Shown here piece after piece: positions 136 to 10,619 of a stretch of DNA of 10,619 bases (its first letter is position 1; each line of letters starts with the position of its first letter). Both the position numbers and the translations under genes were made by a program. Under the pieces are notes generated by a model that was not told the DNA's origin, did not search any database, and worked only from the letters and a program-made list of their open reading frames with translations. Source of the stretch: a virus; UHGV virus genome UHGV-2135452. The stretch is one strand, 5' to 3'.

Positions 136-153
136 GGGCTGGCGGAGTTTGAA
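136..153. repeat. Degenerate direct copy of the ssrA 3'-end att core (candidate attR remnant)
   Basis: GGGCTGGCGGAGTTTGAA at 136..153 resembles GGAGCTGGCGGGAGTTGAAC at 10541..10560, same orientation, with mismatches and indels. It lies about 55 bp outside the left arm-type repeats. Confidence 0.3.
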
Positions 154-206
154 TAAATATTGTATTGCTTTGATTTTTAATGATTTTGTTTAATTCATTT
201 TTTGTG

Positions 207-231
207 CGTATACCTAATCGTATACCAATGG
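207..231. repeat. Arm-type repeat CGTATACC x2 (putative Int binding sites, left arm)
   Basis: CGTATACCTAATCGTATACCAATGG is nearly identical to CGTATACCTAAACGTATACCAATAA at 10402..10426 just upstream of int. Confidence 0.4.
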
Positions 232-291
232 CTGGAAGTTAATGTGAAATGAAAGCGCATTTTTACTTGGATTGATGCTATATCGTACAGG

Positions 292-412
292 AAAAAAAAT
301 TTTTTTCGAAAGAACTGTTCACACTGTTCACCTTTCTGTTTTCTCCTTTTATTTCAGAGTGATAGATGGTGAATAATGGGTGAAGGGTGAACATTCGATT
401 CTTCACCTCCGG
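292..412. repeat. crr direct repeat 1 (about 120 bp) with TGTTCACC / GGTGAACA type I iterons (alpha binding sites)
   Basis: Begins with an A8T7 tract and contains TGTTCACACTGTTCACC plus inverted GGTGAA copies. Near-identical copy at 473..592, period about 181 bp. Matches P4 crr (two 120-bp direct repeats with type I iterons) downstream of alpha. Confidence 0.7.
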
Positions 413-472
413 CATTCTGCCGGTGTGACTTGTGCAGGGGATTAATTTCCCGTGCTGAAATCACACCGGAAG

Positions 473-592
473 AAAAAAAGTTTTTTTGATTTGATTGTTC
501 ACACTGTTCACCTTTCATTTTTCTCTATTAATTTCAGTGTGATAACGGGTGAATATACGGTGAAGGGTGAACAGTGGATTGTTCACCTTCGG
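473..592. repeat. crr direct repeat 2
   Basis: Second copy of the roughly 120-bp unit with the same iteron arrangement. The inter-repeat segment 420..469 holds a 9-bp inverted repeat, CCGGTGTGA ... TCACACCGG. Confidence 0.7.
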
Positions 593-605
593 GGAATTCA
601 GGGAT

Positions 606-630
606 AAAAAAAGACCGGCAGATGCCGGTC
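606..630 (-). terminator. Rho-independent terminator downstream of alpha
   Basis: On the minus strand: GACCGGCATCTGCCGGTC hairpin followed by TTTTTTT, starting 17 nt after the alpha stop codon. Confidence 0.6.
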
Positions 631-646
631 AGATGAGTCATGATGG

Positions 647-8169: not shown

Positions 8170-8243
8170 TAATTTGGGATTTATGTTATCAAGTGCTCTG
8201 TTCGCGCCAAACGCTGAAAATACCCAAGAGAAGTCATTTGCTA

Positions 8244-9113
8244 CTATACTTTTATTCTAATGCTTTTGTTTGCAGATACTTGAATCAGCCGTTCACGGCG
8301 TGGGTATTCACTTTCATTTTGTTTGCTCGTCCATTCTAAAATGTATATATTTGGAATGACATCTCCATTTTCTGAAAGTAGTTCATCAATATCAGATAGT
8401 ATGTTTTTTATGTTCGAGTCTTCTGCGCTGTAACCTATAAATAGAAGAGGGTGTTCAGCAAAGAAAGTAAGCAGTTTTGCGCTTAAATATTTCTTCTTCT
8501 TTATGAAGTCATCGTAGTCATCGCGGTTTATTATTATGCTTTCAGGAGTGGAGCAGCAACCATGTATTTTAAGTATTTCACCAATGCTACCGTGATTAGC
8601 GTAAAGGATTTTTTGGCCTATAATGGGGGTAAGCTCAGGATATATCGATTCAAGTAATTTGTCGTAATTTGTTGTGATGATTGAATGAGGGTGAATCTTT
8701 CTCAGAAGTTCAATTTCACCGTTGTTTACGATTTCTTTTTCTTGTAACAATGAGTTGAAAATACTAGATACTTTGTATTTAAAATAAATACTTGGCTCAT
8801 TGCCTGCATCAAATAACTCTGCTGGAAATTCTTTCTCTCCATCACCCCATGCCCACTCGTTATAAGAATCAGAAAATACACTGCCGATATCAATCAACTC
8901 GGGGTATTTCTGTTTATAATAGGCAAATCTTTTATCGATGTTAGGACATTCATTAGCAAGTTGCTGAAGAAGTTCTTCCCAGTTTGGGCCAGAAAGATAT
9001 CTCTTGGTTAATCCCGATCCAACAAAAAGTATGGGTTGGCATCCCATTCCTTCAAGACATGTCTTTATATCATCACTAACGTCTTCGATGTATTGATGGT
9101 AGTTATTTGGCAT
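8244..9113 (-). CDS. SIR2-like (sirtuin-fold, SIR2_2/defence-type) predicted NAD+-hydrolysing protein, 289 aa
   Basis: Motifs in the expected order and spacing: Rossmann ILFVGSGLTKRY (about residues 28-39), catalytic-type ITTNYD (about 136-141), LKIHGC (about 181-186), LLFIGYSAEDSNI (about 224-236). ATG at 9113 preceded by AAGGAG with 6-nt spacing. Strongly AT-rich relative to the backbone. Confidence 0.8.
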   Translation of the reverse strand: MPNNYHQYIEDVSDDIKTCLEGMGCQPILFVGSGLTKRYLSGPNWEELLQQLANECPNIDKRFAYYKQKYPELIDIGSVFSDSYNEWAWGDGEKEFPAELFDAGNEPSIYFKYKVSSIFNSLLQEKEIVNNGEIELLRKIHPHSIITTNYDKLLESIYPELTPIIGQKILYANHGSIGEILKIHGCCSTPESIIINRDDYDDFIKKKKYLSAKLLTFFAEHPLLFIGYSAEDSNIKNILSDIDELLSENGDVIPNIYILEWTSKQNESEYPRRERLIQVSANKSIRIKV

Positions 9114-9140
9114 TTAAGACTCCTTTGCTGTGCAATCTTA

Positions 9141-10352
9141 TTAAATCGCTTGCATGAGGCGGTGGCGGTTGTGCACAAATTCACCCCACCAATTCATCAA
9201 GTCTATACGTTGTTCAAGGTAAGTTGAACGATTGTATGCTCTTCGAACTTCATTTTTATCACTGTGAGCAAGTGCCGCTTCAATTACGTCCGGATTAAAA
9301 CCAGCTTCATTTAGTGCTGTACTTGCTATAGAACGTAATCCATGAGCAACAAGCTTCCCACCATAACCAATGCGCTTAAGCGCGGCATTCGCAGTCTGGC
9401 TATTCATTGGTTGTTTAGGGTCATTTCTGCTTGGGAAAACATGCTCACGATGTGCGCTAATAGGTTGCATCACTTCTAGAATTTCTAATGCCTGCGTGGA
9501 TAAAGGAACTATGTGCTCTCGTTTGGCCTTCATCCGTTCGGCTGGAATCATCCAGAGCTTTGCATCGAGATCGATCTCTGCCCATCGAGCACCGGAAGCT
9601 TCAGCAGGACGCACTAGAGTCAGAAGCTGCCATTCAATGAGACAGCGAGTCGGAACAGACAGATTTGACATGAACAAAGAACGCATCAGCTTTGGTAATT
9701 CTTCTGGCCTCAGCGTCGGCATGTTTTGTTTTCTGGGCTTTTCAAAGGCCATCCCAACACCTGATGCTGGATTGGCATCAATCAGACCAGTGTTTACGGC
9801 ATAAATCATTATCTCGTTAATGCGCTGTACAAGTCGGCGCACTGTCTCGAGTGCTCCACGAGCTTTGATTGGCTCAAGGGCTTCAACTAGTGTTCGGGCT
9901 TTTATTTGCTGGACAGGAATCTCCCCGATGGCAGGGAATACGTCTTTTTCCAGTGAGCGCCATATATCTTTAGCGTAATCAGGGGTAACGCTTTTGCTTT
10001 TTATCTGGAACCAGTTGGTCGCAACAGTCGAAAAAATACTGTCTAGAGCTATCTGTTGTTGTTCTTCGATAAATTCAGCTTGAACTTGTGGGTCTATACC
10101 ATTAGCCAACAAAGCAAGGTAATCCGCTCTTAACCGTCGAGCATCAGCAAGTGAAAGGGCGGGGAAAGCACCAAGCCCCATCATTGTCCGCTGTTTTGTT
10201 GCTGGACGTTGATAACGGAAACGCCACAACTTCTTACTGTTCGTTTTAACGAGCAGAAAAAGGCCATCGCCATCATGTAACGTTAGATCCTTTTCTAACG
10301 CTTTAGCGCGCAGAACTTCTGTGTTGGTCAGGGGGCGTGTCGTTCTTGCCAC
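9141..10352 (-). CDS. int: P4-type tyrosine integrase, 403 aa
   Basis: N-terminal region typical of P4-family (CP4-57 IntA-like) integrases. C-terminal catalytic region HGLRSIAST ... RAYNRSTYLEQR. GTG start at 10352 preceded by AGGAG with 8-nt spacing. Adjacent to the ssrA 3' end. Confidence 0.95.
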   Translation of the reverse strand: MARTTRPLTNTEVLRAKALEKDLTLHDGDGLFLLVKTNSKKLWRFRYQRPATKQRTMMGLGAFPALSLADARRLRADYLALLANGIDPQVQAEFIEEQQQIALDSIFSTVATNWFQIKSKSVTPDYAKDIWRSLEKDVFPAIGEIPVQQIKARTLVEALEPIKARGALETVRRLVQRINEIMIYAVNTGLIDANPASGVGMAFEKPRKQNMPTLRPEELPKLMRSLFMSNLSVPTRCLIEWQLLTLVRPAEASGARWAEIDLDAKLWMIPAERMKAKREHIVPLSTQALEILEVMQPISAHREHVFPSRNDPKQPMNSQTANAALKRIGYGGKLVAHGLRSIASTALNEAGFNPDVIEAALAHSDKNEVRRAYNRSTYLEQRIDLMNWWGEFVHNRHRLMQAI

Positions 10353-10374
10353 TGTGGCCGCTCCTTCATGAATT

Positions 10375-10426
10375 GGTATACGCGTTTAGGTATACATCCT
10401 ACCGTATACCTAAACGTATACCAATA
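10375..10426. repeat. Arm-type repeats (GGTATAC / GTATACC x4) between int and the att core; putative Int binding sites
   Basis: GGTATACG, GGTATACA, CCGTATACC, CGTATACC within 50 bp. The last two plus flank nearly duplicate 207..231. Confidence 0.4.
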
Positions 10427-10468
10427 ATCACTGGATTTAGCTGGATATCCTCGGACAATGGTAGACAC

Positions 10469-10500
10469 AAAAAAGCCCGCAGAGCTTGTGCCATGCGGGC
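10469..10500 (-). terminator. ssrA terminator hairpin (phage-supplied)
   Basis: On the minus strand: GCCCGCA ... TGCGGGC stem followed by TTTTTT, beginning about 37 nt past the tmRNA CCA end. Confidence 0.5.
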
Positions 10501-10536
10501 TTTTAGGATTTCTCCGGACGTATCCGGAAGAGCAAG

Positions 10537-10619
10537 TGGTGGAGCTGGCGGGAGTTGAACCCGCGTCCGAAATTCCTACATCCTCGGTACTACATGCTTA
10601 GTCAGTCTTTACATTCGCT
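10537..10619 (-). ncRNA. ssrA: tmRNA (ssrA), 3'-terminal 83 nt; 5' part lies beyond the window
   Basis: Reverse complement reads AGCGAATGTAAAGACTGACTAAGCATGTAGTACCGAGGATGTAGGAATTTCGGACGCGGGTTCAACTCCCGCCAGCTCCACCA, matching the recalled 3' end of E. coli ssrA including the T-arm and the CCA end at 10537. Confidence 0.9.

Follow-up and report, generated by a model that had tools for sequence, protein, structure and literature searches.

A P4-family satellite prophage of Escherichia coli with an exchanged integration arc at ssrA and lesions in ori, the distal att core and its cargo gene

The viral genome record UHGV-2135452, a stretch of 10,619 nt that was analysed over its full length and is called the window hereafter (all coordinates are window positions), contains what its sequence identifies almost beyond doubt as a P4-family satellite prophage of Escherichia coli. 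Very probably, this E. coli prophage of ~10.4 kb is a mosaic, made up of a 7.26-kb P4 core and a swapped arc of 3.1 kb, and holds all seven core components of such satellites. Lesions in its origin of replication (ori), its distal attachment (att) core and its cargo gene show an element that was apparently functional until recently and is now in early decay. The kind of element is ordinary and has been catalogued before; the combination of integrase and cargo is already known from published surveys of the P4 hotspot and from RefSeq annotations.

When the window was compared with phage records by megablast, positions 293–7549 matched P4 (NC_001609 / X51522) 4291–11624 at 97% identity. A finer comparison with P4 by blastn gave 96.2% for 293–5340 and 98.7% for 5321–7549, followed by a match of 7550–7579 to P4 1–30. 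Since the latter segment directly continues the 293–7549 match, the right and left ends of P4 are joined in the window, as expected of an integrated or circular form. With 7.26 kb aligned at 96–98.7% nucleotide identity, the resemblance is best understood as homology rather than chance. By contrast, 7580–10536 and approximately 146–292 are without similarity to P4. This arc, which extends from cos to crr, carries a SIR2-like hotspot cargo gene, an IntA-type integrase gene, arm repeats of its own and an attP for the last 15 nt of ssrA. An earlier note on this DNA had called the element a near-complete P4-like satellite; the description fits the crr-to-cos block, which proved collinear with P4 at the identities given above, but not the cos-to-crr arc, where cargo, int and attP have been replaced. 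Accordingly, the two elements differ in length (11.6 kb for P4), in the gop, beta and cII genes of P4, which were absent from the window in tblastn searches with the P4 proteins and in place of which the window element has the SIR2-like gene, and in Int, which is only 35% identical, with unrelated attP and arm repeats. The attachment site of P4 is a leucine tRNA gene, not ssrA.

Within the shared block, eight proteins are 97–99% identical to those of P4 at the amino acid level, and the gene order int–(hotspot/cos)–psu–delta–sid–alpA–epsilon–alpha is collinear with the P4 annotation. Core genes were identified by tblastn with P4 proteins, and the domains found with Pfam and NCBIfam agreed with the assignments. 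The largest, alpha (647–2980, minus strand), encodes an intact primase-helicase and origin-binding protein of 777 aa that is 99.0% identical to its P4 counterpart over 776 aa, without gaps, and comprises Zn-ribbon, Toprim, D5_N and Pox_D5 domains (Pfam). It is followed by its Rho-independent terminator, t-alpha (604–630, minus strand), a hairpin GACCGGCATCTGCCGGTC with a T-run that is orthologous to P4 4604–4628. Also on the minus strand and intact are orf106 (2995–3315; P4 cnr; DUF5375, PF17345; 98.1% amino acid identity), orf151 (3451–3906; 98.0%), the helper-derepression gene epsilon (3899–4186; 95 aa; 98.9%; PF25738) and the excisionase/regulator gene vis of the AlpA family (4766–5032; 88 aa; PF05930), the product of which is 98.9% identical to P4 Vis and 36% identical to AlpA of E. 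coli K-12. The plus strand carries sid, for the capsid size-determination scaffold (5508–6242; 244 aa; 99.2% to P4 Sid), delta, for a late-gene activator with two Ogr/Delta zinc-finger modules (6239–6739; 166 aa; 97.0%; PF04606 in two stretches), and psu, for polarity suppression and capsid decoration (6813–7385; 190 aa; 99.5%; PF07455 with 296 bits), again all intact. Type A P4-like satellites, as defined by de Sousa & Rocha, have all seven core components; by this definition (SatelliteFinder), the window element shows six P4 proteins at full length and 97–99% identity, together with an integrase bearing a tyrosine recombinase domain.

Every hallmark feature named in the earlier note was found, and its assignments, including those of alpha, sid, delta, psu and cos, were correct on alignment to P4. 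The sid–delta–psu genes align with those of P4 at full length and without gaps (97–99% at the amino acid level), Rfam matches and the P4 alignment agree on an immunity RNA region, vis, alpha and crr in the P4 order, and none of the seven core genes (0/7) bears an inactivating lesion.

The cis-acting sites of the core are equally recognizable. The cos site (7522–7580) contains the 19-nt cohesive end GGCGAGGCGGGGAAAGCAC at 7550–7568, which matches the cohesive ends of P4 and of P2 at 19/19 positions and bears out the cos that had been claimed; the flanking TGCATTAAAACCGCCCCG...AAGCG.GCG and.GCGCGC show conservation too. On its right side, the flank at 7569–7580 (TGCGCGCTAACG) is nearer to that of P2 (TGCGCGCTGACG) than to that of P4 (CGCGCGCAAACC); here the variable hotspot takes over from the P4-homologous sequence. 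The cis replication region crr (293–592), homologous to P4 crr 4291–4590, consists of two direct repeats of 120 bp (293–412 and 473–592) and is complete, with five exact TGTTCACC iterons as in P4. The late promoters are marked by TGT-N12-ACA dyads, the sites of Delta/Ogr: one at 5135–5152, upstream of vis, orthologous to the P4 site in PLL, and two at 5418–5435 and 5456–5473, upstream of sid, identical to those of P4 Psid. All three dyads stand at P4-orthologous positions. Counted along all 10,619 nt, the motif shows no enrichment (six found against 2.4 expected; 7 of 200 shuffles reach six), and the assignment of the late-promoter dyads is backed only by positional orthology to P4.

The integration module is of another origin than P4. 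The integrase gene (9141–10352, minus strand) lies 184 nt from the CCA end of the transfer-messenger RNA (tmRNA), next to the tmRNA 3′ end as the earlier note had proposed. It is intact and encodes a tyrosine integrase of 403 aa with Arm-DNA-bind_3, Phage_int_M and Phage_integrase domains (Pfam), which scored 600 bits on NF007246 (cut-off 434) and is 63% identical over 393 aa, without gaps, to IntA of the K-12 element CP4-57. The decamer GTATACCWAW, a candidate arm-type site for this integrase, occurs six times in the window against 0.03 expected, and all copies flank the att cores: two are in the crr-side arm of attP (208–229, plus strand; at 208 and 220) and four in the int-side arm (10372–10425; at 10372, 10386, 10404 and 10416), two inverted and two direct.

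The tmRNA gene ssrA itself is represented by its 3′ part (10537–10619, minus strand), which matched Rfam RF00023 with 77 bits over model positions 288–374; ARAGORN called no tmRNA in the window, the gene being cut by the window end. The att core was set by comparing attB, both window junctions, the tandem junctions of the E. coli E47 copy of the element and the ends of K-12 CP4-57. On this basis, the ssrA-proximal core (10537–10551, minus strand) comprises the last 15 nt of ssrA, CCGCCAGCUCCACCA (TGGTGGAGCTGGCGG on the plus strand), in agreement with the boundary of K-12 CP4-57, 15 nt before the ssrA end. The distal core (133–145; attR in ssrA orientation) is a decayed pseudo-ssrA 3′ end, TTTGGGCTGGCGG, that retains only GCTGGCGG and a partial TGG of the 15-nt core, whereas the corresponding copy in E47 carries TGGTGGAGCTGGCGG undamaged at this place. 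With these cores, the limits of 136–10560 given earlier were right to within about 10–25 nt, and the likening of the insertion to that of CP4-57-type elements holds for both the integrase and the use of the terminal 15 nt of ssrA. A crossover in the T-loop had also been considered, the distal copy being ssrA-like up to TTCAA; it was dropped, as attB, both junctions, the E47 tandem junctions and the K-12 annotation point to the terminal core of 15 nt.

Beyond the distal core, positions 1–132 are native chromosomal flank 3′ of ssrA, that is, the distal side of attB, contiguous with the ssrA 3′ end in empty-site genomes. A synthetic junction of 1–131 with 10537–10619 yielded one contiguous match in ~2635 of 5426 complete E. 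coli genomes, for example that of Nissle 1917, which identifies the flank as native and implies that attB is empty in about half of the strains. The same flank stands at the right end of K-12 CP4-57. The idea that positions 1–135 are a remnant of another ssrA-integrating element, to which matches in phages LLS and Ayreon had given rise, was abandoned, since the flank follows ssrA in the ~2635 empty-site genomes. In these lambdoid phages, ~110 nt beside attP are 84–86% identical to the E. coli flank 3′ of ssrA (window 8–129), and the attP region also holds 49 nt of the ssrA 3′ end (LLS: L005 2501–2662); the phages have thus copied not only the gene end but also the native trailer.

The element carries an intrinsic terminator for ssrA (10473–10504, minus strand; z = -3.95), an 11-bp stem followed by a U-run, located 33–64 nt after the CCA end, whereas the first intrinsic terminator in an empty-site strain lies ~130–150 nt after it. 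The proposal that the element provides the 3′ end and the terminator of ssrA was therefore sound. A similar, though not identical, hairpin is found 3′ of ssrA in K-12 CP4-57. Half of the native ssrA terminator hairpin is still visible as window 1–14 (L007 285–306 in the empty-site locus); this terminator, which probably also ends the convergent ypjA gene, has been displaced 10.4 kb by the element.

The structure of the cores bears on the fate of tmRNA. Excision of CP4-57 deletes U357 and thereby inactivates tmRNA (PMC10107115). The K-12 scar sequence is consistent with such a loss, and the K-12 pseudo-ssrA (psaA), like the distal core of the window, is without the U357 position. By analogy with CP4-57, any excision of the window element would probably leave a non-functional tmRNA gene, with U357 lost and the ACCA end damaged. 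A crossover in the surviving GCTGGCGG would leave ...CCGCCAGC-CCAA-AUAAUG, with no G-U pair at 357 and no encoded ACCA; a repaired attB without U357 and with ...GCCCAAAU... would be the product predicted if excision inactivates tmRNA.

The most conspicuous departure from P4 inside the core is found at ori. Three tandem type-I repeats, GGTGAACAG, remain at 5311–5340, with AT-rich flanks, and the junction of a 76-bp deletion lies near 5320/5321. As compared with P4, the deletion removed three of the six alpha-binding iterons together with the AT-rich stretch between the iteron clusters; the type-2 repeat region of the P4 ori has also diverged in the window. Six iterons are present at ori in P4 and in three close relatives, and the undeleted form of 197 nt was found in 40/40 of the top-ranked among 966 E. 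coli matches, so that none of the complete E. coli genomes among these 40 has the same deletion. The 76 bp are bounded by 19-nt near-repeats, GGTGAACAGTGGTGAACAG and GGTGAACAGAGGTGAACAG, an arrangement typical of a slippage-like event. A literature search for the minimal P4 ori returned nothing usable.

A second lesion affects the cargo gene (7756–9113, minus strand), which lies between cos and int and is a candidate defence gene (Pfam SIR2_2; PADLOC PDC-S25). Owing to a 1-nt deletion in an A5 run (8250–8253), the protein is cut after residue 288 of 452, and open reading frames (ORFs) of 289 and 137 aa remain. Scored with the PDC-S25 hidden Markov model, the intact orthologue reached 282 bits and the N-terminal fragment of 289 aa reached 248 bits. 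All seven of the other complete E. coli genomes that carry the gene encode the intact 452-aa protein, WP_001133507, and the frameshift was found in none of them (0/7); it could reflect either a real pseudogene or a homopolymer sequencing error. The psu–int interval is a known defence hotspot of P4-like satellites, and WP_001133507 was named as hotspot cargo by Rousset et al. (2022, PMC9122126), who cloned the orthologue from E. coli M605 as pFR88; the insert of this plasmid starts with the 3′ end of the int gene seen in the window. The seven protective systems of Rousset et al. include no SIR2-only system (PMC9122126), from which we infer that the M605 orthologue was inactive against the eight phages of that study.

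Close relatives of the element are numerous, as at least 80% of the window is carried by 298 of 5426 complete E. coli genomes. The satellites of E. coli 2022H047, 2018-10-1CC, E47, MEI4BO-21, wlxctx60 and M605 (the source of pFR88) have the same backbone, Int, SIR2 gene and ssrA-region location, at 98–99.5% nucleotide identity, but differ from the window element in their intact SIR2 ORF and six-iteron ori; moreover, 2022H047/E47 and 2018-10-1CC bear other alleles of the immunity RNAs discussed below. Some of these copies are arranged in tandem arrays. In 2018-10-1CC, the element stands alone between ypjA and ssrA, as in the window, while in 2022H047 it adjoins IS100 and a degraded integrase gene. 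In E47, a tandem array lies directly beside a 186/P2-like prophage with integrase, CI, CII and Fil (L004 16490–22489), which is a plausible helper for the satellite. Between the att junction of this prophage and its int there is a gene for an anti-phage dCTP deaminase, and the right junction in E47 comprises 45 nt of ssrA 3′ sequence. No plasmid copies of the int–cargo arc were found in PLSDB, where only partial IntA-like matches of 81–86% occur. Retronphage phiR73 is likewise a P4-type satellite with another integrase and attachment site, a retron as cargo and a CI-RNA immunity with another specificity; it differs from the window element in cargo, site and immunity allele.

Within the P4 core, divergence is confined to the immunity region, where identity falls to 82% for the old 'cI137' frame; the architecture of the early promoter PLE and the CI RNA is shared with P4. 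On the minus strand, PLE (4701–4730; TTGCCT-18-TATAGT in a promoter scan; identical in sequence to P4) precedes a leader with the IsrK-like seqA RNA and a terminator hairpin (4617–4694; Rfam RF01394 with 72.3 bits and RF03163 with 49.1 bits), in which the seqA target occupies 4646–4669 and the terminator 4637–4623. These are accompanied by a c4-a1b1 target motif (4655–4707; Rfam), the C4-type CI immunity RNA (4431–4518; RF01695, 74.4 bits) and the downstream CI target seqC (4387–4426; GUAGGAA ... CUCGAAGG). In P4, pairing of CI RNA with seqA and seqC leads to premature termination of PLE transcription (PMC4825925). The CI RNA of the window differs from that of P4 at six nucleotides, all of them in the two seqB loops, and the changes in seqA and seqC are exactly complementary to those of the CI loops. 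Accordingly, computed duplexes are far more stable between cognate than between crossed partners. For the window CI RNA, the cognate and P4 targets gave -33.3 and -20.5 kcal/mol with seqA and -41.1 and -26.8 kcal/mol with seqC; for P4 CI RNA, the cognate and window targets gave -36.5 and -21.0 kcal/mol with seqA and -42.8 and -29.5 kcal/mol with seqC. The element thus retains a working immunity architecture, the specificity of which is predicted to differ from that of P4 and to make it heteroimmune to P4.

This allelic variation extends to the relatives. Five CI loci were compared (window 4387–4669, minus strand; L001 8365–8712; L002 7240–7560; L003 12365–12720; L004 10240–10560). On these five backbones, which are 96–99% identical, loop 1 of the CI RNA occurs as four alleles (CCUGUGAA, UCUUCGAG, CCUUGAAG and CCGUUAGA) and loop 2 as two, and in each case seqA and seqC are exactly complementary. 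In addition, the window CI allele recurs, 100% identical, at other chromosomal positions in other E. coli genomes. Because the alleles are compensated at both targets on near-identical backbones, and because the same allele occurs at other loci, the RNA immunity cassette appears to be a module that is exchanged as a whole. A small Icd-like ORF of 65 aa (4179–4376, minus strand; NF033153, 76 bits) lies downstream of the immunity region. It forms part of a longer ORF of 211 aa (4179–4814, minus strand), which also covers the CI RNA, seqA and the PLE promoter itself; RefSeq lists equivalents of this longer frame either as a pseudogene of the 'ash family' or as an 'Icd-like protein' of 200 aa. Within this frame, only the 65-aa ORF has family support, and the coding sequences called by RefSeq across the CI RNA region, an RNA locus, are most likely artefacts of annotation.

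The genes and sites described above are observed, and the following life cycle is drawn from established P4 biology. Int would integrate the circular element into the 3′ end of ssrA, whereby the element would supply the terminal nucleotides, the 3′ trailer and the tmRNA terminator. Lysogeny would be maintained by pairing of the CI RNA with seqA and seqC in the PLE transcript, leading to premature termination. In the presence of a helper of the P2/186 type, Epsilon would derepress the helper, and Delta, together with the helper Ogr, would act on the TGT-N12-ACA dyads to switch on Psid and PLL. Vis and Int would then excise the element, and Alpha would replicate it from ori and crr. Finally, Sid would remodel helper capsids to the small size, Psu would decorate them and the helper terminase would package the DNA through the P2-identical cos.

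It is less clear how much of this cycle can still be completed. The earlier note had regarded the element as potentially mobilisable and not a decayed remnant; the intact core ORFs agree with this opinion, which is supported subject to three caveats, namely the 76 bp missing from ori, the decayed distal att core and the frameshifted SIR2 cargo gene. With ori shortened and the distal core eroded, mobilisability is uncertain, and we give even chances to the element being still mobilised at a useful frequency. Several points tell against an element that has only begun to decay. The undeleted ori looks selected, because the 76-bp deletion is absent from P4, from the three relatives and from the 40 top-ranked matches, and replication of the window element may therefore be impaired. 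Relative to the proximal core, the distal core has three deleted positions, including that of U357, and one substitution; this decay could lower or abolish Int-mediated excision. The window contains no helper prophage. Furthermore, the crossover position within the 15-nt core is transferred from CP4-57, the integrase of which is just 63% identical, and the effect of the CI alleles on immunity specificity is a prediction from duplex energies only.

These points lead to the strongest alternative, which is quite possible although we would not call it probable: the element may be a P4-derived prophage already immobilised by its half-deleted ori or its decayed distal core, that is, a young cryptic element resembling CP4-57. 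The host would then keep it as the functional 3′ end and terminator of ssrA. An ori that has lost three of six iterons, seen in no relative inspected, is consistent with immobilisation, as are the distal core short of three positions, that of U357 included, with its one substitution, and the frameshifted cargo gene, unlike that of 7/7 genomes with the gene. Since excision of CP4-57 inactivates tmRNA in K-12 (PMC10107115), loss of such an element would be costly. On the other hand, the seven core ORFs as well as orf106 and orf151 are full length and 97–99% identical to those of P4, so that any decay must be very recent. Of the replication sites, crr is complete, and ori still has three tandem iterons and its AT-rich flanks. 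Moreover, packaging of the P2 type proceeds from monomeric circles, so that low-level transfer would be possible even without replication. Finally, the distal core still has GCTGGCGG and the arm on the element side, and K-12 CP4-57, which is without the distal U357 position, still excises (PMC10107115).

Alternatively, the two private lesions, namely A5 read as A4 in the SIR2 gene and the loss of 76 bp from ori, might be sequencing or assembly errors in an element that is really intact. We consider this unlikely. The frameshift does fall in a homopolymer run, the ori deletion is bounded by 19-nt near-repeats, and neither lesion was seen in any related genome inspected. However, ~8 kb of coding sequence shows no other homopolymer frameshift and all P4 ORFs are intact, and a clean deletion of 76 bp between short direct repeats is classic replication slippage but unusual for an assembler. 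The lesions may thus represent early decay, and errors are the less likely explanation.

That the element is a cryptic island of the CP4-57 type and not a true P4 satellite is practically untenable: despite the shared insertion in the last 15 nt of ssrA, the distal pseudo-ssrA scar without the U357 position, the IntA-type integrase (63%), an AlpA/Vis-family regulator and a similar terminator of its own after ssrA, it is refuted by the P4 alignment, in which 68% of the window, including sid, delta, psu, cos, alpha, ori and crr, is 96–99% identical to P4, and by a Vis that is 99% identical to P4 Vis as against 36% to AlpA. CP4-57 is an element of 22 kb without sid, delta, psu, cos, alpha, ori and crr, and is not helper-packageable. 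When the K-12 annotation was compared with the window ORFs, none of the other CP4-57 gene content (the yfjH–ypjF block) was found. The window element is, as far as can be judged by sequence comparison, a genuine P4 genome with a CP4-57-type integration module.

As a discovery, the element is of little value, inasmuch as descriptions already exist of the psu–int hotspot, of this SIR2 cargo and of IntA-type integrases that target ssrA, and P4-like satellites are common across E. coli genomes. The chief use of the record is as an annotation case, in which the element is delimited by a 15-nt ssrA core and in which intact genes can be seen to mask lesions in the cis elements, ori and att, that decide satellite mobility. 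It is tempting, if rather doubtful, to go further and to speculate that the satellite has been caught during domestication, its private ori deletion crippling replication and the cost of excision, U357 and part of ACCA, either binding the host to the element or providing a ribosome-rescue switch like that of CP4-57, and that at the same time the CI/seqA/seqC triad constitutes a swappable combinatorial immunity code, in which four specificities among five near-identical backbones would point to diversifying selection through competition between satellites. The most interesting loose ends for the biology of this family are accordingly the probable cost of excision to tmRNA and the modular, compensated RNA immunity alleles that are shuffled among otherwise identical satellites.

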